A stretch of 64,000 nt of DNA from Mobula hypostoma (lineage: Eukaryota), in contig NC_086097.1 of assembly GCF_963921235.1 (NCBI RefSeq), forward strand, positions 29,638,001-29,702,000. The letters run 5' to 3'. Made by a program: the position numbers and the translations under genes. The notes under the pieces were generated by a model. It had not been told where the DNA came from, did not search any database, and saw nothing but the letters and a program-made list of their open reading frames with translations. Every line of letters starts with the position of its first letter. The first letter of the stretch is position 1. This document shows positions 38,550 to 64,000 of this stretch, piece after piece.

Positions 38550-38915
38550 CATTTGATGGGCCGAATAGCCTAAATCTGCTCCTGTGTCTTCTGGTCTTAT
38601 ATAAGAAAGGGGTTGAGAGGGGTAATAAATCAGCCATTATGTATTGGTAGAACAGAGTTGATGGGCCGAATGGCCCAATTCTGCTCTTGTGCCTTATGGT
38701 CTTATAGGAGATTGGGGTTGAGAAAGATAATAAATCAGCCATGATGGAATGGTAGAGTTTATTCGATGGGCTGAATGAAATCATTCTGCATCTCTGTATT
38801 ATTGTTTTAGAGGAGAATGGGATTGAGAGGAGTAATAAATCAGTCATGATGGGAATAATGGAATAGACCCAATGGGCCTAATTCTGCTCTTATGTCTTAT
38901 ATATTGTGGTTTTAT
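38550..38915 (+). repeat. About 4 tandem degenerate ~100-bp copies of a CR1 3' terminus
   Basis: Repeated ggggttgaga..ataataaatcagccat...gatgggccgaatggcc.aattctgctc units. Confidence 0.75.
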
Positions 38916-49463: not shown

Positions 49464-52400
49464 CTCACTGCCGCCCTCCAGTGTTTCAGTTTGCTCACTG
49501 CCGGCCTCCAGTGTTTCTGTTTGCTCACTGCCGCCCTCCAGTGTTTCAGTTTGCTCACTGCCACCCTCCAGTGTTTCTGTTTGCTCAGCGCCGCCCTCCA
49601 GTGTATCTATTTGCTCACTGCCACTCTCCAGTGTTTCCGTTTGCCCACTGCCACCCTCCAGTGTTTCTGTTTGCTCACTGCCGCCCTGCAGTGTTTCAGT
49701 TTGCTCACTGCTGCCCTCCAGTTTTTCAGTTTGCTCACTGCCGCCCTCCAGTTTTTCAGTTTGCTCACTGCCGCCCTCCAGTGTTTCCGTTTGCTCAGCA
49801 CTGCCCTCCAGTGTTTCCGTTTGCCCACTGCCGCCCTCCAGTGTTTCAGTTTGCTCACTGCCGGCCTCCAGTGTTTCTGTTTGCTCACTGCCGCCCTCCA
49901 GTGTATCTGTTTGCTCACTGCCGCCCTCCAGTGTTTCAGTTTGCTCAGTGTTGCCCTCCAGTGTTTCAGTTTGCTCACTGCCGCCCTCCAGTGTTTCACT
50001 TTGCTCACTGCCGCCCTCCAGTGTTTCAGTTTGCTCAGTGCCACCCTCCAGTGTTTCCGTTTGCTCAGTGCCACCCTCCAGTGTTTCCGTTTGCTCAGTG
50101 CTGCCCTCCAGTGTTTCAGTTTGCTCAGTGTTGCCCTCCAGTGTTTCAGATTGCTCACTGCTGCCCTCCAGTGTTTCTGTTTGCCCACTGCCGCCCTCCA
50201 GTGTTTCAGTTTACCCACTGCCGCCCTCCAGTGATTCAGTTTGCTCACTGCCGCCCTCCAGTGTTTCAGTTTGCCCACTGCCGCCCTCCAGTGTTTCTGT
50301 TTGCCCACTGCCACCCTCCAGTGTTTCAATTTGCTCACTGCCACCCTCCAGTGTTTCGGTTTGCTCACTGCCACCCTCCAGTGTTTCGGTTTGCTCACTG
50401 CCACCCTCCAGTGATTCAGTTTGCCCACTGCCGCCCTCCAGTGTTTCAGTTTGATCACTGCCACCCTCCAGTGTTTCAGTTTGCCCACTGCCGCCCTCCA
50501 GTGTTTCAGTTTGCCCACTGCCGCCCTCCAGTGTTTCAGTTTGCTCACTGCCACCCTCCAGTGTTTCAGTTTGCTCAGTGCTGCCCTCCAGTGTTTCAGT
50601 TTGCTCACTGCCGCCCTCCAGTGTTTCAGTTTGCTCACTGCCACCCTCCAGTGTTTCTGTTTGCTCAGCGCCGCCCTCCAGTGTATCTATTTGCTCACTG
50701 CCACTCTCCAGTGTTTCCGTTTGCCCACTGCCACCCTCCAGTGTTTCTGTTTGCTCACTGCCGCCCTGCAGTGTTTCAGTTTGCTCACTGCTGCCCTCCA
50801 GTTTTTCAGTTTGCTCACTGCCGCCCTCCAGTTTTTCAGTTTGCTCACTGCCGCCCTCCAGTGTTTCTGTTTGCTCAGCACTGCCTTCCAGTGTTTCCGT
50901 TTGCCCACTGCCGCCCTCCAGTGTTTCGGTTTGCTCACTGCCGCCCTCCAGTGTTTCTGTTTGCTCAGTGCCGCCCTCCAGTGTTTCAGTTTGCTCAGTG
51001 CCACCCTCCAGTGTTTCAGTTTGCTCACTGCCGCCCTCCAGTGTTTCAGTTTGCCCACTGCCGCCCTCCAGTGTTTCAGTTTGCTCAGTGCTGCCCTCCA
51101 GTGTTTCTGTTTTCTCAGTGCTGCCCTCCAGTGTTTCTGTTTTCTCAGTGTTGCCCTCCAGTGTTTCAGTTTGCTCAGTGCTGCCCTCCAGTGTTTCAGT
51201 TTGCTCACTGCTGCCCTCTAGTGTTTCGGTTTGCTCACTGCCACCCTCCAGTGTTTCAGTTTGCTCACTGCCGCCCTCCAGTGTTTCTGGTTGCTCACTG
51301 CCGCCCTCCAGTATTTCAGTTTGCTCACTGCCGCCCTCCAGTGTTTCAGTTTGCTCAGTGCCACCCTCCAGTGTTTCAGTTTGCTCACTGCCGCCCTCCA
51401 GTGTTTCTGTTTGCTCACTGCCGCCCTCCAGTGTTTCAGTTTGCTCACTGCCGCCCTCCAGTGTTTCAGTTTGCTCACTGCTGAGCTCCAGTGTTTCAGT
51501 TTGCTCAGTGCCGCCCTCCAGTGTTTCAGTTTGCTCACTTCTGAGCTCCAGTGTTTCTGTTTGCTCACTGCCGCCCTCCAGTGTTTCTGTTTGCTCACTG
51601 CCGCCCCCCAGTGTTTCAGTTTGCTCACTGCCGCCCTCCAGTGTTTCAGTTTGCTCACTGCTGAGCTCCAGTGTTTCAGTTTGCTGTGCCGCCCTCCAGT
51701 GCTTCAGTTTGCTCACTGCCGCCCTCCAGTGTTTCAGTTTGCTCACTTCTGAGCTCCAGTGTTTCTGTTTGCTCACTGCCGCCCTCCAGTGTTTCTGTTT
51801 GCTCACTGCCGCCCTCCAGTGTTTCAGTTTGCTCACTGCCGCCCTCCAGTGTTTCAGTTTGCTCACTGCTGAGCTCCAGTGTTTCAGTTTGCTGTGCCGC
51901 CCTCCAGTGTTTCAGTTTGCTCACTGCCGCCCTCCAGTGTTTCAGTTTGCTCAATGCTGCCCTCCAGTGTTTCAGTTTGCCCACTGCCGCCCTCCAGTGT
52001 TTCAGTTTGCTCAGTGCCGTCCTCCAGTGTTTCAGTTTGCTCACTGCAGAGCTCCAGTGTTTCTGTTTGCTCACTGCTGAGCTCCAGTGTTTCAAATTGC
52101 TCACTGCTGAACTCCAGTGTTTCGGTTTGCTCACTGCCACCCTCCAGTGTTTCAGTTTGCTCACTGCTGAGCTCCAGTGTTTCTGTTTGCTCACTGCCGC
52201 CCTCCAGTGTTTCAGTTTGCTCACTGCCGCCCTCCAGTGTTTCAGTTTGCTCACTTCTGAGCTCCAGTGTTTCTGTTTGCTCACTGCCGCCCTCCAGTGT
52301 TTCTGTTTGCTCACTGCCGCCCTCCAGTGTTTCAGTTTGCTCACTGCCGCCCTCCAGTGTTTCAGTTTGCTCACTGCTGAGCTCCAGTGTTTCAGTTTGC

Positions 52401-54486
52401 TGTGCCGCCCTCCAGTGTTTCAGTTTGCTCACTGCCACCCTCCAGTGTTTCAGTTTGCTCAATGCCGCCCTCCAGTGTTTCAGTTTGCCCACTGCCGCCC
52501 TCCAGTGTTTCAGTTTGCTCAGTGCCGTCCTCCAGTGTTTCAGTTTGCTCACTGCAGAGCTCCAGTGTTTCTGTTTGCTCACTGCTGAGCTCCAGTGTTT
52601 CAGATTGCCCACTGCTGAACTCCAGTGTTTCGGTTTGCTCACTGCCACCCTCCAGTGTTTCAGTTTGCTCACTGCTGAGCTCCAGTGTTTCTGTTTGCTC
52701 ACTGCCGCCCTCCAGTGTTTCAGTTTGCTCAGTGCCGCCCTCCAGTGTTTCAGTTTGCTCAGTGCCGCCCTCCAGTGTTTCAGTTTGCTCACTGCCACCC
52801 TCCAGTGTTTTGGTTTGCTGACTGCCGCCCTCCAGTGTTTCTGTTTGCTCACTGCCGCCCTCCAGTGTTTCAGTTTGCTCACTGCCGCCCTCCAGTGTTT
52901 CAGTTTGCTGACTGCCACCCTCCAGTGTTTCCGTTTGCTCACTGCCGCCCTCCAGTGTTTCAGTTTGCTCACTGCTGCCCTCCAGTGTTTCAGTTTGCTC
53001 ACTGCCGCCCTCCAGTGTTTCAGTTTGCTCACTGCTGAGCTCCAGTGTTTCAGTTTGCTGTGCCGCCCTCCAGTGTTTCAGTTTGCTCACTGCCGCCCTC
53101 CAGTGTTTCAGTTTGCTCAATGCCGCCCTCCAGTGTTTCAGTTTGCCCACTGCCGCCCTCCAGTGTTTCAGTTTGCTCAGTGCCGTCCTCCAGTGTTTCA
53201 GTTTGCTCACTGCAGAGCTCCAGTGTTTCTGTTTGCTCACTGCTGAGCTCCAGTGTTTCAGATTGCTCACTGCTGAATTCCAGTGTTTCGGTTTGCTCAC
53301 TGCCACCCTCCAGTGTTTCAGTTTGCTCACTGCTGAGCTCCAGTGTTTCTGTTTGCTCACTGCCGCCCTCCAGTGTTTCAGTTGGCTCAGTGCCGCCATC
53401 CAGTGTTTCAGTTTGCTCAGTGCCGCCCTCCAGTGTTTCAGTTTGCTCACTGCCACCCTCCAGTGTTTTGGTTTGCTGACTGCCGCCCTCCAGTGTTTCT
53501 GTTTGCTCACTGCCGCCCTCCAGTGTTTCAGTTTGCTCACTGCCGCCCTCCAGTGTTTCAGTTTGCTGACTGCCACCCTCCAGTGTTTCCGTTTGCTCAC
53601 TGCCGCCCTCCAGTGTTTCAGTTTGCTCACTGCTGCCCTCCAGTGTTTCAGTTTGCTCAGTGCCATCCTCCAGTGTTTCAGTTTGCTCACTGCTGAGCTC
53701 CAGTGTTTCAGTTTGCTCACTGCCACCCTCCAGTGTTTCTGTTTGCTCACTGCCGCTCTCCAGTGTTTCAGTTTGCTCACTGCTGAGCGCCAGTGTTTCT
53801 GTTTGCTCACTGCCGCCCTCCAGTGTTTCAGTTTGCTCACTGCAGAGCTCCAGTGTTTCAGTTTGCTCACTGCAGAGCTCCAGTGTTTCTGTTTGCTCAC
53901 TGCTGAGCTCCAGTGTTTCTGTTTGCTCACTGCCACCCTCCAGTGTTTCTGTTTGCTCACTGCTGCCCTCCAGTGTTTTGGTTTGCTCACTGCCGCCCTC
54001 CAGTGTTTCTGTTTGCTCACTGCTGAGCTCCAGTGTTTCAGTTTGCTCACTGCTGAGCTCCAGTGTTTCGGTTTGCTCACTGCCGCCCTCCAGTGTTTCA
54101 GTTTGCTCACTGCTGAGTTCCAGTGTTTCTGTTTGCTCACTGCCGCCCTCCAGTGTATCAGTTTGCTCACTGCCGCCCTCCAGTGTTTCGGTTTGCTCAC
54201 TGCTGCCCTCCAGTGATTCAGTTTGCTCACTGCTGCCCTCCAGTGATTCAGTTTGCTCACTGCCACCCTCCAGTGTTTCAGTTTGCTCACTGCTGCCACC
54301 CAGTGTTTTGGTTTGCTCACTGCCACCCTCCAGTGTTTTGGTTTGCTCACTGCTGCCCTCCAGTGTTTCAGTTTGCTCACTGCCGCCCTCCAGTGTTTCG
54401 GTTTGCTCACTGCCGCCCTCCAGTGTTTCGGTTTGCTCACTGCCGCCCTCCAGTGTTTCAGTTTGCTCGCTGCTGAGCTCCAGTGC
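49464..54486. repeat. 30-bp minisatellite (ttgctcactgccgccctccagtgtttcagt)n, ~165-170 units
   Basis: Directly visible 30-bp periodicity with four 28-bp variant units. Confidence 0.98.
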
Positions 54487-57190: not shown

Positions 57191-57579
57191 AAAAGCCCCA
57201 GACAGGACAGATGGGAAGGCTAGAGTGAGTAAATTTGCTGGGCCAGAAGGTATGACTTGTAGGGCACTCAAGGAGATGGGGTGGTGAGAGTGCCAGGACC
57301 TGCCATAATATTCCAATGTAGGAAGATGAGCTTGAGGACTGGAAAGCGAAAAATATGATACCTTTGATGAAGGAAAGGTGTGTGGACATGGCTAGTAACT
57401 GCAGCTGCCCAAGTGACATGCGGTGTGGGAAATCTTTATGAAATAATCAGATTAAATATTCATAAGCAATAGGGCAGCTCCAAGTTAATGATGGAGAGAT
57501 GGCATAAATCTGTAAAAGGCAGATTGTGTTTGTCTTGTCAGGAGTTATTTGAAGACCTAAACTAGGAGGCTCATGAGGT

Positions 57580-60485
57580 GACACTGGGAGTGTGTTATGG
57601 GACAGTGTGGAGGGAGCTTCACTCTGTGTCTGACCCCGGAAGTGTGTGATAGGAAGGTGTAGAGGGAGTTTCACTCTGTGTCTGACCCTGAGAGTGTGTG
57701 ATGGGACAATGTGGAGGGAGCTTCACTCTGTGTCTGACCCCAGGAGTATGCGATGGGACAGTGTGGAGGGAGCTTCACTCTGTGTCTGACCCCAAGAGTG
57801 TGTGATGGGACAGTGTGGAGGGAGCTTCACTCTGAGTCTGACCCCGGGAGTGTGTGATGGGACAGTGTGGAGGGAGCTTCACTCTGTGTCTGACCCCGGG
57901 AGTGTGTGATGGGACAATGTGGAGGGAGCTTCACTCTGTGTCTGACCCCGGGAGTGTGTGATGGGACAGTGTGGAGGGAGCTTCACTCTGTGTCTGACCC
58001 CAAGAGTGTGTGATGGGACAGTGTGGAGGGAGCTTCACTCTGAGTCTGACCCCGGGAGTGTGTGATGGGACAGTGTGGAGGGAGCTTCACTCTGTGTCTG
58101 ACCCCGGGAGTGTGTGATGGGATAATGTGGAGGGAGCTTCACTCTGTGTCTGACCCCGGGAGTGTGTGATGGGACAGTGTGGAGGGAGCTTCACTCTGAG
58201 TCTGACCCCGGGAGTGTGTGATGGGACAGTGTGGAGGGAGCTTCACTCTGTGTCTGACCCCGGGAGTGTGTGATGGGATAATGTGGAGGGAGCTTCACTC
58301 TGTGTCTGACCCCGGGAGTGTGTGATGGGACAGTGTGGAGGGAGCTTCACTCTGTATCTGATCCCAGGAGTGTGTGATAGGAAGGTGTAAAGGGAGTTTC
58401 ACTCTGTGTCTGACACTGAGAGTGTGTTATGGGACAGTGTGGAGGGTGCTTCACTCTGTGTCTGACCCCAGGAGTGTGTGATGGGACAGTGTGGAGGGAG
58501 CTTCACTCTGTGTCTGACCCCAGGAGTGTGTGATGGGACAGTGTGGAGGGAGCTTCACTCTGTGTCTGACCCCGGGAGTGTGTGATGGGACAGTGCGGAG
58601 GGAGCTTCATTCTGTATCTGACCTCAGGAGTGTGTTATGAGACAGTGTGGAGGGAGCTTCACTCTGTGTCTGACCCCAAGAGTGTGTGATGGGACAGTGT
58701 GGAGGGAGCTTCACTCTGTGTCTGACCCCAGGAGTGTGTGATAGGACAGTGTGGAGGGAGCTTCACTCTGTGTCTGACCCCAGGAGTGTGTGATAGGACA
58801 GTGTGGAGGGAGCTTCACTCTGTGTCTGACCCTGAGAGTACAATGGGACAGTGTGGAGGGAGCTTCATTCTGTATCTGACCTCAGGAGTGTGTTATGAGA
58901 CAGTGTGGAGGGAGCTTCACTCTGTGTCTGACCCCGGGAGTGTGTGATGGGACAGTGTGGAGGGAGCTTCACTCTGTGTCTGACCCTGAGAGTGTGTGAT
59001 AGGAAGGTGTAAAGGGAGTTTCACTCTGTGTCTGACCCTGAGAGTGTGTGATGGGACAGTGTGGAGGGAACTTCACTCTGTGTCTGACCCCGGGAGTGTG
59101 TGATGGGACAGTGTGGAGGGTGCTTCACTCTGTGTCTGACCCCGGGAGTGTGTGATGGGACAGTGTGGAGGGAGCTTCACTCTGTGTCTGACCCCGGGAG
59201 TGTGTGATGGGACAGTGTGGAGGGAGCTTCACTCTGTGTCTGACCCCAGGAGTGTGTGATGGGACAGTGTGGAGGGAGCTTCACTCTGTGTCTGACCCCA
59301 GGAGTGTGTGATAGGACAGTGTGGAGGGAGCTTCACTCTGTGTCTGACCCCAGTGTGTGTGACGGAATGGTGTTGAGGTAGTTTCACTCTGTGTCTGATC
59401 CCAGGAGTGTGTGATAGGACAGTGTGGAGGGAGCTTCACTCTGTGTCTGACCCTGAGAGTGTGTGATGGGACAGTGTGGAGGGAGTTTCACTCTGTGTCT
59501 GACCCCGGAGTGTGTGATGGGACAGTGCGGAGGGAGCTTCACTCTGTGTCTGACCCCGGGAGTGTGTGATGGGACAGTGTGGAGGGAGCTTCACTCTGTG
59601 TCTGACCCTGAGAGTGTGTGATGGGACAGTGTGGAGGGAGTTTCACTCTGTGTCTGACCCCGGAGTGTGTGATGGGACAGTGCGGAGGGAGCTTCACTCT
59701 GTGTCTGACCCCGGGAGTGTGTGATGGGACAGTGTGGAGGGAGCTTCACTCTGTGTCTGACCCCAGTGTGTGATAGGAAGGTGTAGAAGGAGTTTCACTC
59801 TGTGTCTGACCCCGGGAGTGTGTGATGGGACAGTGTGGAGGGAGCTTCATTCTGTGACTGACCCTGAGAGTGTGTGATGGGACAGTGTGGAGGGAGCTTC
59901 ACTCTGTGTCTGACCCCGGGAGTGTGTGACGGAATGGTGTTGAGGTAGTTTCATTCTGTGTCTGACCCCAGTGTGTGTGACGGAATGGTGTTGAGGTAGT
60001 TTCATTCTGTGTCTGACCCCAGTGTGTGTGATGGAATGGTGTTGAGGTAGTTTCATTCTGTGTCTGACCTCAGGAGTGTGTGATGGGACAGTGTGGAGGG
60101 AGCTTCATTCTGTGACTGACCCTGAGAGTGTGTGATGGGACAGTGTGGAGGGAGCTTCACTCTGTGTCTGACCCCGGGAGTGTGTGACGGAATGGTGTTG
60201 AGGTAGTTTCATTCTGTGTCTGACCCCAGTGTGTGTGACGGAATGGTGTTGAGGTAGTTTCATTCTGTGTCTGACCCCAGTGTGTGTGATGGAATGGTGT
60301 TGAGGTAGTTTCATTCTGTGTCTGACCTCAGGAGTGTGTGATGGGACAGTGTGGAGGGAGCTTCATTCTGTGACTGACCCCGGGAGTGTGTGATGGGACA
60401 GTGTGGAGGGAGCTTCATTCTGTGACTGACCCTGAGAGTGTGTGATGGGACAGTGTGGAGGGAGCTTCACTCTGTGTCTGACCCC
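57580..60485. repeat. 52/51-bp satellite (gggagtgtgtgatgggacagtgtggagggagcttcactctgtgtctgacccc)n, left arm, ~56 units
   Basis: Directly visible periodicity. Confidence 0.98.
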
Positions 60486-60494
60486 TTTTTTTTT

Positions 60495-60675
60495 GGCTCA
60501 TGTAGACCCCGCCCTGCCACTCCAGGAGCCAAGCAGACTCGTCCCCAGGGATGGTATGGGTTTCCTGCAGGAAACTCACCGTATACCGCCCATCCCTGAG
60601 GACTGAGAGATTGTTATGCCTGCGAAGTGGACCCCTGCTGCCGTTTACATTGAGACTAGCTATGGTAAGCTTCAT
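60495..60675 (-). pseudogene. Truncated ORF2: N-terminus of an APE-type endonuclease
   Basis: MKLTIASLNVNG...SFLQETH are the first two conserved APE motifs; the sequence runs into poly(A) after ...GGVYMS. Confidence 0.9.
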
Positions 60676-60687
60676 GGCGGGAGCACA

Positions 60688-62742
60688 CTAGGTCTCAGCA
60701 GCTACGCCCATTTCGGTGAGAGCGGAGGCGCCTTCCACCACACTGTCCGGAAAGAAAGCAAGGATACCTTTTGCTTTCCGGGCTCGAGCGGTACCAGCAA
60801 CACCCTGTGACCCACCATCCCCCGTAGGAGCGAGGCTGCTTCTCCCTCTGATGTCCCTTACTAGGTCATCCAGGAAAGATTTTAGTTGCCGTCTGTCGTT
60901 CCCCACCACCGCATTCCTCTTTCCCTTTCCCTTTCGTCTGAGGATGACTCGCAGGGACCTCACCAGCCTCGGCATGCTGGGCCAGCGAAGCGAGGCTAGC
61001 TGAGGCCGGTGCTTGGCACCCTCAGAGGTGAGAATGAAATGCTTAATTTCCTCTACAGGTATCAAAGGGGATTTCTCAGGAGGGGTGAGGATGTCCATTG
61101 TTTCACTATCGAAAGAGTCCCCCTCCAACCCGTCACTGCAGACAGAATCCCCATCGGCCTCCCCGCATGTTCCAATAGATGGCTGCGCCTGCGACCCACA
61201 CCGCGCAGCGGGCACCTCGCTCTTACCTGCCCGCTCCACCGTCGCATCAGCCTCATCCACATTTGCGACAGTGGAGAGACAATCCCCAGGGACTCCCTGC
61301 AAGTCATTTATTGCTGGGGTCGATGTGCACAGAATATCGTCCTCCCTAGGGGGCAGGCATAGAGGGGAACCCGGCACCTTTGGTCCAAGGGATTCATAAG
61401 CCGCCTGGTGCTGAGAATGAGAGAGCTTTGCCTCGTCTCCTCTTACACTATTCGGTACACTGGCCTCCAGAGAGGCGCTGACTTGTAGGTCCTGGGTGGA
61501 GGCTTCCAGGGCTGCCTCATTTGTGCAAACAGGCCTATCACAAGCTTTTTGCACAACCACACCATCTACCCCAGGACTGGTGGCTACATCTGAGGACTCA
61601 GGTTTAGAACCAACCCCTACCCGGATTCCCACCCCTTCCTGGGACTCCCCCGCATCTACATCCCCTGCCCTCTTGCGGGAACGTTCCCTTCTCCTCTTCA
61701 CGCTGGAGGAGCACACAGGTGCAGGCTTCACCGATGGGGCGGCGCCTTCTGTTTCCATCGCCCCGTCTGCTTGCGCACCTCCCCGAGCCCCACGCTCCAC
61801 TTCAGACGAAATGGGTGTGAGCTCTGCGGCCTCAAAGGCCCGCTTCTTACTATGTTTGGATTTCCCCTTTGCCTTCTTACTCCGCACAGACTCCACCCCG
61901 TCCCCCACCTGAACTACAGGGAGAGGAGCAGGGACCGACCCAACCGTAGAAGTAGGGACAGGGGTAGGGGTAGGGGCAGGGTGAGGGGCTGGGGCAGGAT
62001 CACGGGCGGGGGCAGGGTCAGATGCAGGTGCAGGCGCACGCGCAGGAGTAGGATCAGGGGCAGAGGTAGCTGCGGCACTGGTGCCCGAAGTGGGCTCCCT
62101 CGGGTTCCGGGCGGCAGGACAGTCCCTCCGAAAGTGCCCCACCTCCCTGCACGCATGGCACCGTGGGCGCTCGGAGCTCCAGTACACCTGATAATCTACT
62201 CCCTCGTGCCGGACAGTAAAGCGGCCCTCAACATCGTCCTCCCTTTCCAGCTGCATGAAAACCTGACGCCGGAAAGAGATTACGGTGCGGAGGGTGCGTC
62301 TCTTAAATTTGTGTCGGATGGCAGTAATCTCCGACCTTACTTGCCCTAAACGGGCCAGTGGGGGAAGCAAGTCCTCATTTGGAATGAAAGGCTTAACATG
62401 CCCAAGCACGATACGTTGCGTGGGGGCCGTCACCAGCTCCATAGGTAAAAAGATGTTGTCCACCGTGACTCCCCTGCTTAGGGCCCGGTGCACTAGCTCT
62501 TCATTCACCAGATAGAACACCGCCTTTCCGAACTCCTTCTCGGTGGCCAGAATACCACCTTTCCCCACAAGGTCCTCCATTGCCTCCGTACACTTTTCTA
62601 GTGTCATTCCAGGGCGCAAAATACATTGCACCCCACGTTCCACCTTCACCGACCGAAACAGGGCGTTGTCCGAGGCCGGGGAGGCAGCCGCCCTTGCGTA
62701 ACTCCCCGAAGGCCCGCGACTCCCTGGAGACCGGTCCGGCAT
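60688..62742 (-). CDS. Tx1-type ORF1 (gag-like nucleic-acid-binding protein, 684 aa) with CCHC zinc knuckle
   Basis: ATG-to-stop ORF; SYARAA N-terminal motif; CHACREVGHFRRDC = CX2CX4HX4C; Pro/Ala-rich linker; ORF2 starts 12 nt after its stop. Confidence 0.9.
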   Translation of the reverse strand: MPDRSPGSRGPSGSYARAAASPASDNALFRSVKVERGVQCILRPGMTLEKCTEAMEDLVGKGGILATEKEFGKAVFYLVNEELVHRALSRGVTVDNIFLPMELVTAPTQRIVLGHVKPFIPNEDLLPPLARLGQVRSEITAIRHKFKRRTLRTVISFRRQVFMQLEREDDVEGRFTVRHEGVDYQVYWSSERPRCHACREVGHFRRDCPAARNPREPTSGTSAAATSAPDPTPARAPAPASDPAPARDPAPAPHPAPTPTPVPTSTVGSVPAPLPVVQVGDGVESVRSKKAKGKSKHSKKRAFEAAELTPISSEVERGARGGAQADGAMETEGAAPSVKPAPVCSSSVKRRRERSRKRAGDVDAGESQEGVGIRVGVGSKPESSDVATSPGVDGVVVQKACDRPVCTNEAALEASTQDLQVSASLEASVPNSVRGDEAKLSHSQHQAAYESLGPKVPGSPLCLPPREDDILCTSTPAINDLQGVPGDCLSTVANVDEADATVERAGKSEVPAARCGSQAQPSIGTCGEADGDSVCSDGLEGDSFDSETMDILTPPEKSPLIPVEEIKHFILTSEGAKHRPQLASLRWPSMPRLVRSLRVILRRKGKGKRNAVVGNDRRQLKSFLDDLVRDIRGRSSLAPTGDGGSQGVAGTARARKAKGILAFFPDSVVEGASALTEMGVAAET

Positions 62743-63269
62743 GCTGGCGCTCTTTCCAGTCCGAGAATCCTACAGCGCTGTCGATTAGAAGTCCTGGAGC
62801 GAAACGAGTAACTGGCCGGGAAAGTTTGCAGTCGACAGTTCCTCGCTGGCTCGGCGCCAGTAAAGGCTCCGTCGGACTTGCAGAGACCCAGGCCGGGAGA
62901 GGCCGAAACGTCCTTCCAGATGCTCCGGCACCGGCACCGGCACCGACACCGGACGAAAAATCAGGAAAACAATGGAGGAGGAACTTTGCCCCGATGTCAA
63001 TGGGGGGAAAACGACGGCGTTTGCCTCCGGTTTTGGAGCGAACCGGCTTACTGGCGAGTTGCCAGCGGCCGCAGCTGGGAGCTACGCAGTAAGCAGCCGC
63101 CAACAAACCCAGTCCAAACCGGCAGCAAAAACTCCACACCGAGCTTCCACGCCAACGCCGTCACTCACTCAGTTGTCCAAGAGACTTTTAGAGCCACCTC
63201 CAAAGTATTCCACGAACTTTATCCAGTAGTTTTCCTTCGATTTCTCCCAGCTCAGTCAGCACAGCTCCT

Positions 63270-64000
63270 CTCTGTGTCTGACCCCGGGAGTGTGTGACGG
63301 AATGGTGTTGAGGTAGTTTCATTCTGTATCTGACCTCAGGAGTGTGTGATGGGACAGTGTGGAGGGAGTTTCACTCTGTGTCTGACCCCGGTGTGTGTGA
63401 CGGAATGGTGTTGAGGTAGTTTCATTCTGTGACTGAACCCAGTGTGTGTGATGGAATGGTGTGGAGGTAGTTTCATTCTGTGACTGAACCCCAGTGTGTG
63501 TGATGGGACAGTGTGGAGGTAGTTTCATTCTGTGACTGAACCCCAGTGTGTGTGATGGGACAGTGTGGAGGGAGCTTCACTCTGTGTCTGACCCCAGTGT
63601 GTGTGATGGAATGGTGTTGAGGTAGTTTCACTCTGTGTCTGACCCCAGTGTGTGTGATGGAATGGTGTTGAGGTAGTTTCACTCTGTGTCTGACCCCAGT
63701 GTGTGTGATGGGACAGTGTGGAGGGAGCTTCACTCTGTGTCTGACCCCAGTGTGTGTGATGGAATGGTGTTGAGGTAGTTTCACTCTGTGTCTGACCCCA
63801 GTGTGTGTGATGGAATGGTGTTCAGGTAGTTTCACTCTGTGTCTGACCCCAGTGTGTGTGACGGAATGGTGTTGAGGTAGTTTCACTCTGTGTCTGACCC
63901 CAGTGTGTGTGATGGGACAGTGTGGAGGTAGTTTCACTCTGTGTCTGACCCCAGTGTGTGTGACGGAATGGTGTTGAGGTAGTTTCACTCTGTGTCTGAC
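63270..64000. repeat. 51/52-bp satellite, right arm (runs off the window)
   Basis: Same unit as the left arm, enriched in the 51-bp ggaatggtgttgaggtagttt variant. Confidence 0.98.

Follow-up and report, generated by a model that had tools for sequence, protein, structure and literature searches.

Retrotransposons of the Tx1 clade, which lack long terminal repeats (non-LTR elements), are known from several kinds of multicopy target, among them the DNA transposon Tx1D for Tx1, U2 genes for Keno, and (TC)n and (TTC)n for Kibi and Koshi, while the targets of crocodilian Tx1 families comprise Mariner, Harbinger and LTR elements and also (TC)n, (TTC)n, (TTCC)n or (TTTC)n microsatellites (Kojima 2015, PMC4494074). 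'Sat, satellites' is likewise listed among the known Tx1 targets in the legend of Fig. 3 of that work (PMC4494074). For the Xenopus laevis element Tx1L, the endonuclease alone was reported to be site specific in vitro (PMC1950540). Here, we describe a family of long interspersed nuclear elements (LINEs) of this clade in the ray Mobula hypostoma, starting from one copy in a window of 64,000 nt (assembly GCF_963921235.1, NC_086097.1:29,638,001-29,702,000, forward strand), the whole stretch of DNA that was analysed and to which all feature coordinates below refer. This copy lies on the minus strand at 60486-63269 (2784 nt) and is embedded in a satellite with a 52-bp unit. We consider it very probable that it belongs to a young, high-copy Tx1 family that targets a single base of this satellite.

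Tx1L, the founding member of the Tx1 clade, is the best named match to the ray family. It shares with the ray family a collinear second open reading frame (ORF2), an endonuclease of the apurinic/apyrimidinic endonuclease (APE) type and insertion at one defined site in a multicopy sequence (PMC4494074, PMC1950540), but its target is the Tx1D DNA transposon, whereas that of the ray family is the 52-bp satellite monomer. The hairpin loop of the Tx1L endonuclease ends in RDGH (PMC1950540), and its ray counterpart (FSR-RSREG---GS) is four residues shorter, a difference that would agree with a different target. Kibi, Koshi and the crocodilian families resemble the ray family as Tx1-clade elements directed to tandem repeats (PMC4494074); compared by description only, they differ from it in that the ray repeat unit is 52 bp long and has a single nick position per unit. 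The 'Sat' families (PMC4494074), as far as the figure legend alone goes, have the same kind of target. Satellite targeting is thus already recorded for the Tx1 clade (PMC4494074), and the ray family adds a case to it, not a new kind of system. Our search of the literature, which was partial in coverage, found no Tx1 family aimed at a satellite in cartilaginous fishes. Human L1 has the same ORF1/ORF2 layout, an ORF2 with APE endonuclease and reverse transcriptase (RT), and a poly(A) tail; however, L1 nicks TTTT/AA, so that the primer pairs with the tail (PMC1950540), whereas the CCC(C) primer end of the ray family is unable to pair with poly(A).

Kinship with Tx1 and preference for one satellite base

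The family was searched in the M. hypostoma assembly (3.48 Gb, 200 contigs) with two queries. The 2784-nt window copy yielded a 5' sample, consisting of the best-scored 40 of 289 first-look candidates, of which 30 loci were read, and a query of the last 400 nt at the 3' end of the full element yielded a 3' sample, consisting of the best-scored 40 of 639 first-look candidates, with the flanks of all 40 read. The 40 scored matches were all ~99% identical in the 2784-nt search and all 100% identical in the 400-nt search. Pairwise identity among 30 copies ranged from 98.5 to 99.9%, with a median of 99.2%, and the family is therefore young. Eleven copies fetched whole measured 6351-6366 bp, about 6.35 kb, with an ORF1 of 684 aa, an ORF2 of ~1220 aa, a 3' untranslated region (3'UTR) of ~100 nt containing AATAAA, and a tail of A8-A20; 7 of them had both reading frames open throughout. 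For the full-length copy L033, Pfam profiles place an N-terminal APE-type endonuclease (Exo_endo_phos, aa 6-226, E 2e-19) ahead of the reverse transcriptase (RVT_1, aa 511-761, E 3e-38) in ORF2, a protein of which the window copy retains aa 1-60.

The best named match to ORF2 among 5.8 billion proteins was the 'Transposon TX1 uncharacterized 149 kDa protein' of Xenopus laevis (1288 bits), which was also the only match named as a Tx1 or LINE reference. By BLASTP, ORF2 and Tx1L ORF2 are collinear and identical at 507 of 961 positions (53%) over the endonuclease and RT; in the final 250 aa, a stretch that contains the C-terminal Cys/His motif, identity is 42%. Human L1 ORF2p aligned to ORF2 aa 4-863 with 273 bits (E 3e-80), and R2 proteins matched the RT core only (76-79 bits). 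ORF2 is, by similarity and not by tree, closer to Tx1L than to L1 proper, and on this protein similarity we assign the family to the Tx1 clade, as the initial annotation of the window had already done. The search with ORF1 returned only three matches, all of them ray proteins with 66-98% identity and none of them Tx1L ORF1, and Pfam detected nothing in ORF1 beyond a zinc knuckle. An atlas search suggests, as a lead only, that the N-terminal part of ORF1 is CCHC/ZCCHC3-like and RNA-binding.

Both samples show that insertion is concentrated on one base of the satellite. In the 5' sample, the junction ...GGGTCAGACACAGAG|AGGAGCTGTGC was found at all 30 loci, with the 15-mer exact in 26 and carrying one or two mismatches in 4. 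Satellite lay upstream in 26 of the 30; with L005, a head-to-tail tandem in which the upstream sequence is the tail of another copy plus the 16-mer, 27/30 were on target, and the three remaining loci (L015, L018 and L029) had unrelated DNA upstream. In the 3' sample, poly(A)|(G)GGGTCAGACACAGAG with satellite after it was read at 25 of the 40 junctions, at the same base and on 13 contigs; three direct tandems (L033, L048 and L071) are included in this count, and so is L070. All on-target insertions in both samples occupy one base in one orientation. The initial annotation had raised the possibility of a family specialised for this satellite and had asked what a tabulation of junctions from further copies in the same genome would give: one satellite base predominates and off-target flanks are a minority. 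The strong preference is thus real, but it is not exclusive, since 15 of the 40 3' junctions lie off target.

A LINE is regarded as target specific by Kojima 2015 if one sequence type makes up >20% of its flanks (PMC4494074), and here 25/40 of the 3' flanks and 27/30 of the 5' flanks are on target, which makes the family target specific by this rule. Strict site specificity, of the kind seen for R1 and R2 in ribosomal DNA (rDNA), where essentially all copies sit at the target, does not describe this family, given the 15/40 3' junctions elsewhere. What emerges is a Tx1 LINE whose targeting of the satellite is strong, though not strict.

The exact 23-mer site CCCRGGGTCAGACACAGAGTGAA occurs 20,293 times in the 3.48 Gb, and its reversed control not once. 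These occurrences correspond to ~1 Mb of monomers, or ~0.03% of the genome. Since the left satellite arm of the window carries the exact 23-mer in ~17 of 56 monomers, the satellite as a whole may, by extrapolation, make up ~0.1% of the genome. The binomial probability of 25/40 junctions on target is ~1e-116, and still ~1e-90 if the satellite made up 1% of the genome. With a site this rare and 25/40 junctions falling on it, chance is excluded.

Contigs from organisms A, B and C also span the whole element, at 90-99% identity. The fraction of window words present was 0.80-0.86 in organism A and 0.24-0.33 in B and C. At the 5' junction, the contigs from these other organisms extend only 19-28 nt into the satellite, with 28 nt in B and 20 nt in C, under the 31-nt threshold for bridging, and they were not counted as bridging it.

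Nick site and 5' ends

Family junctions differ with the monomer type in which they lie: GGGG comes after the tail in cccG monomers, and GGG in cccA monomers. This places the cut in the primed strand at 5'-...CTGACCC(Y)^GGGAGTG-3', with RGGGTCAGACACAGAG as the segment that is duplicated. In head-to-tail tandems, a single 16-mer is common to both copies (L033 with L032, and also L048, L071 and L099); a 16-mer with a single native flank is still usable as a target. Beyond the 52-bp satellite, L041 and L076 both lie in one phase of a different satellite (...ctca^g(g/t)gtgg), a site that shares the bases around the nick, CA|G(G/T)GT, with the 52-bp target. This second satellite has a 48-bp unit (gcacggtatcgtacagtcagtgcgatgccattacagctcagggtggaca) and holds the two copies ~2 kb apart on contig C9 at ~65.29 Mb; it may represent a secondary target. 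Ten of the 15 off-target flanks in the 3' sample start with G, as do those of L039 and L041. At the on-target 3' junction of L043 (C92:177334-177533), 'gggtc' and another run of A8 stand between the tail and a renewed target sequence, a stutter that suggests a restart or slippage at priming.

The off-target full-length copies carry pieces of satellite with them. In all three, satellite precedes the AGGAGC at the element start, with 22 nt in L039, 17 nt in L040 and 23 nt in L041, and these leaders include both the cccA and the cccG variant. This is most simply read as a type of 5' transduction, with satellite-resident source copies whose RNAs would begin within the monomer upstream. Full-length ends are also unevenly distributed in the 3' sample, where a 5' head was found at the expected distance in 17 of 25 on-target copies vs 1 of 15 off-target copies (Fisher p = 2e-4), the single off-target case being L040 and the other 14/14 having none. 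We infer that the completion of full-length insertions with an exact 5' junction is aided by homology between leader and target. The canonical 15-mer is present on the 5' side in 26/30 copies vs 235/409 background monomers (57.5%; p = 0.0016), and on the 3' side in 17/24 (L070 omitted; p = 0.29). In many cases, the 5' target copy may thus derive from the leader or an adjacent monomer instead of from simple duplication.

R1 and R2 belong to other clades, the R2 endonuclease is restriction-like, and the target of these elements is a transcribed rRNA gene. By analogy, the ray family would resemble them, and other site-specific LINEs with flanking target sequence in their transcripts, in its uniform 5' junctions and in a putative target-derived 5' end of its RNA.

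The copy in the window

The window copy and the satellite on either side of it comprise the following features, in window positions.

57579..60485, no strand: satellite left arm, which is the target array (TRF period 52, 56.1 copies, 90% matches)
60470..60485, minus strand: target copy at the tail side (3' of the element), reading ctctgtgtctgacccc on the + strand, whose 3' end ...CCCC is the reverse-transcription primer; same position in 25/40 family 3' junctions
60486..60494, minus strand: A9 tail (T9 on the + strand), of which the first A may be part of the ORF2 GAGCCA
60495..60675, minus strand: ORF2 codons 1-60, the start of the APE endonuclease, cut at element position 2776 (weak Exo_endo_phos match, E 0.007)
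60688..62742, minus strand: ORF1, 684 aa without interruption; aa 194-209 form a CCHC zinc knuckle (zf-CCHC in Pfam, E 1.8e-4)
62743..63269, minus strand: 5'UTR of 527 nt, beginning AGGAGCTGTGCTGACTGAGC, a start common to 28/29 other copies (L006 has T at the first base)
63270..63285, minus strand: target copy flanking the element on its 5' side, which completes the 16-bp duplication
63270..64000, no strand: satellite right arm of 51/52-bp monomers, running past the window end (TRF period 51, 14.3 copies)

Given the start that it has in common with the other copies, the 5' end of the window copy is full. A 12-nt spacer separates ORF1 from the ATG of ORF2, and an imperfect hexamer/18-mer repeat at 61954-62063 (AGGGGC on the + strand) encodes the Pro/Ala/Thr-rich low-complexity middle of ORF1.

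An exact 16-bp target-site duplication in the 52-bp satellite, with a primer 3' end of CCCC beside the poly(T), had been proposed for this copy from its sequence, and both details stand. The 16-mers at 60470-60485 and 63270-63285 are identical in a script comparison (16/16), and the primer end reads ...GACCCC, with the nick at the proposed position. Because most monomers carry the core 15-mer, a 16-mer on both sides says little by itself; what counts is the 16-nt in-phase overlap. The higher-order register of the array across the insertion is ambiguous, with the right arm best matching 362 and 620 nt back, which are not multiples of 258, and a local empty-site comparison was used in its place. 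An empty site reconstructed by deleting the insert and one 16-mer agrees with the uninterrupted array at 60056-60235 without a mismatch over 103 nt to the left and 41 nt to the right of the junction, and it agrees similarly with the array at 59798-59977.

The satellite itself (59800-60485 and 63270-64000) consists of at least two monomer subtypes, one of 52 bp (...gatgggacagtgtggagggagcttca...) and one of 51 bp (...gacggaatggtgttgaggtagtttca...). These are arranged in blocks whose order repeats locally at 258 bp, and the arms flanking the insertion differ in their subtype mix.

The copy is shortened at its 3' end. A Tx1 retrotransposon had been placed at 60470..63285, which is confirmed, but what lies there is a 3'-truncated, ORF1-only copy in which nearly all of ORF2 is gone, a feature that the initial annotation did not mention. 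The window copy aligns to query position 2784, and the other 39 scored matches end at 2776. The 29 other copies whose sequence was read all have GAGCCA|CCTCAGC... and continue into ORF2, whereas the window copy reads GAGCCA followed by A8. The pattern of this junction, GGGGTCTACATGAGCCAAAAAAA, has a single match in the 3.48 Gb, which is the window itself. The truncation was therefore a single event, and an ORF1-only non-autonomous subfamily, of the HAL1-like type, was rejected. Two further candidates were also set aside. No AATAAA or ATTAAA was seen in the 50 nt before the tail of the window copy, which weakens ordinary premature polyadenylation as a cause of the truncation, and we rejected it. 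We also rejected internal priming, in which ...GACCCC would have paired with a GGGGTC located 14 nt ahead of the truncation point, since an A tail is present and the 14 nt are retained.

We tentatively prefer an insertion in trans, in which a 3'-shortened, A-tailed family RNA would have been integrated by the proteins of a full-length copy. This seems to us the likeliest origin, and if it is true, target choice requires neither the 3'UTR nor ORF2 in cis. A quite plausible competitor is a later deletion of ~3.57 kb, reaching from ORF2 codon 61 to where the tail begins, in a copy that had been inserted on target at full length. In a variant of it, the RT would have jumped, while the element was being inserted, from the tail to a place inside the RNA. 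The missing polyadenylation signal, the usual family length of the remaining A8-9 tail and the uniqueness of the junction are all consistent with this scenario. However, the end point of a random deletion would need to coincide with the tail start to within one or two bases, for which there is ~1 chance in several hundred, whereas an event at the level of the RNA or of reverse transcription gives the tail junction automatically. It might also be argued that the truncated structure is an artefact of assembly in a repeat-rich region, given its position within a satellite and the hundreds of near-identical copies of the family; the clean junctions, the perfect rebuilt empty site and the private substitutions of the window copy (99.3% identity to L033) make this most unlikely.

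Mechanism and alternative explanations

For a satellite-targeting family of this kind, we propose that the ORF2 endonuclease would nick one strand of the 52-bp monomer at 5'-CTCTGTGTCTGACCC(Y)^GGGAGTG-3', that is, at cactccc^RGGGTCAGACACAGAG in the element sense. The freed ...CCC(C) 3' end would prime reverse transcription on the poly(A) tail without base pairing, and opening of the second strand 16 nt away would lead to the duplication of the 16-nt segment. RNAs of satellite-resident source copies would begin ~17-23 nt or more upstream, in the flanking monomer, so that the far end of the cDNA would be homologous to the target, and this homology might help to make the uniform full-length 5' junctions. 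In a broader version, which we regard as doubtful, the family would have transferred the co-transcription habit of rDNA elements to a non-coding satellite: an RNA 'address label' of 17-23 or more nt and a sequence-specific endonuclease would together produce full-length, precise on-target insertions, poly(A) and protein being enough for targeting, with the ORF1-only copy delivered in trans.

Several observations weigh against a satellite-targeting family as set out here. Specificity is partial, as the 15 off-target 3' junctions show, and both samples are best-scored sets and not a census. L060 and L061 share an identical flank, as expected of a segmental duplicate, and are probably one event counted as two, and L070, counted on target, lies in a longer variant of the repeat. 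The 17 on-target 5' heads comprise 9 that were read directly and 8 that were assigned by coordinate match, one of these 8 being 183 bp short. Of the 8 on-target copies for which both junctions are available, 5 have 16-mers that are mismatched at 1-3 positions, which plain target-site duplication does not predict in such young copies. The lack of a polyadenylation signal before the tail of the window copy belongs to the same list.

As an alternative to repeated targeted insertion, the satellite copies might have been amplified along with the array, through segmental duplication or unequal crossing-over. L060 and L061 are two full-length copies 11.5 kb apart on contig C33 (139-151 kb), and their identical 110-nt 3' flanks show that element and flank were duplicated there as a block; several copies are, moreover, clustered on C33, C130, C40 and C80. 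As a general explanation, however, co-amplification with the array is extremely improbable. The upstream 200-nt flanks have a median ungapped identity of 0.525 (maximum 0.965), and only 3 of 435 pairs exceed 0.95, although the elements that they adjoin have a median identity of 99.2%. Flanks so much more divergent than the elements point to independent insertions. On-target copies are carried by 13 contigs in the 3' sample alone, tail lengths vary between copies, and the satellite leaders on off-target copies show real retrotransposition out of the satellite. A different possibility is that the target is set by homology between RNA leader and array, or by satellite chromatin, instead of by a sequence-specific endonuclease. 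The leaders of 17-23 nt on off-target copies, the excess of the canonical 15-mer on the 5' side and the frequent unlikeness of the two copies of the 16-bp duplication are in keeping with it. Yet insertion begins at the tail, where the RNA offers only poly(A), and nevertheless a single nick base is used in 25/40 cases. The window copy, without the 3'UTR and most of ORF2, is still exactly on target, and the two insertions in the unrelated 48-bp satellite share the CA|G(G/T)GT core. Together with the in vitro specificity of the Tx1L endonuclease on its own (PMC1950540), these points make an endonuclease-independent choice of target unlikely, and we favour specificity set by the ORF2 endonuclease.

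The ray family adds a clear, apparently recently active APE-type LINE that chooses one base of a 52-bp satellite. Its hundreds of near-identical copies, its natural off-target events and an apparently trans-mobilised deletion copy allow the rules that govern target choice and 5' joining to be read off the sequence alone. Elements of this kind help to explain the ways in which transposons reach 'safe' places in large genomes and reshape satellite arrays, and they are of interest as starting points for site-directed insertion tools. The family also matters for annotation, as public ray gene models have absorbed its ORFs. The gene models P0003, P0122, P0123 and P0037, from rays and a shark, contain long stretches that are 66-98% identical to ORF1 or ORF2 of the family, under names such as 'von Willebrand factor A domain-containing protein 7-like' and 'lipeb isoform X2', and they probably represent transposon sequence fused into gene predictions.

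The window contains two further tandem repeats. A second, unrelated satellite with a 30-bp unit (CTCACTGCCGCCCTCCAGTGTTTCAGTTTG) occupies 49464-54485, with 167.7 copies, 89% matches and a strongly skewed base composition. At 38551-38852, a 105-bp tandem repeat of 2.9 copies contains the motif GGGCCGAATGGCCTAATTCTGCTC, which we take to be common in the interspersed repeats of cartilaginous fishes.

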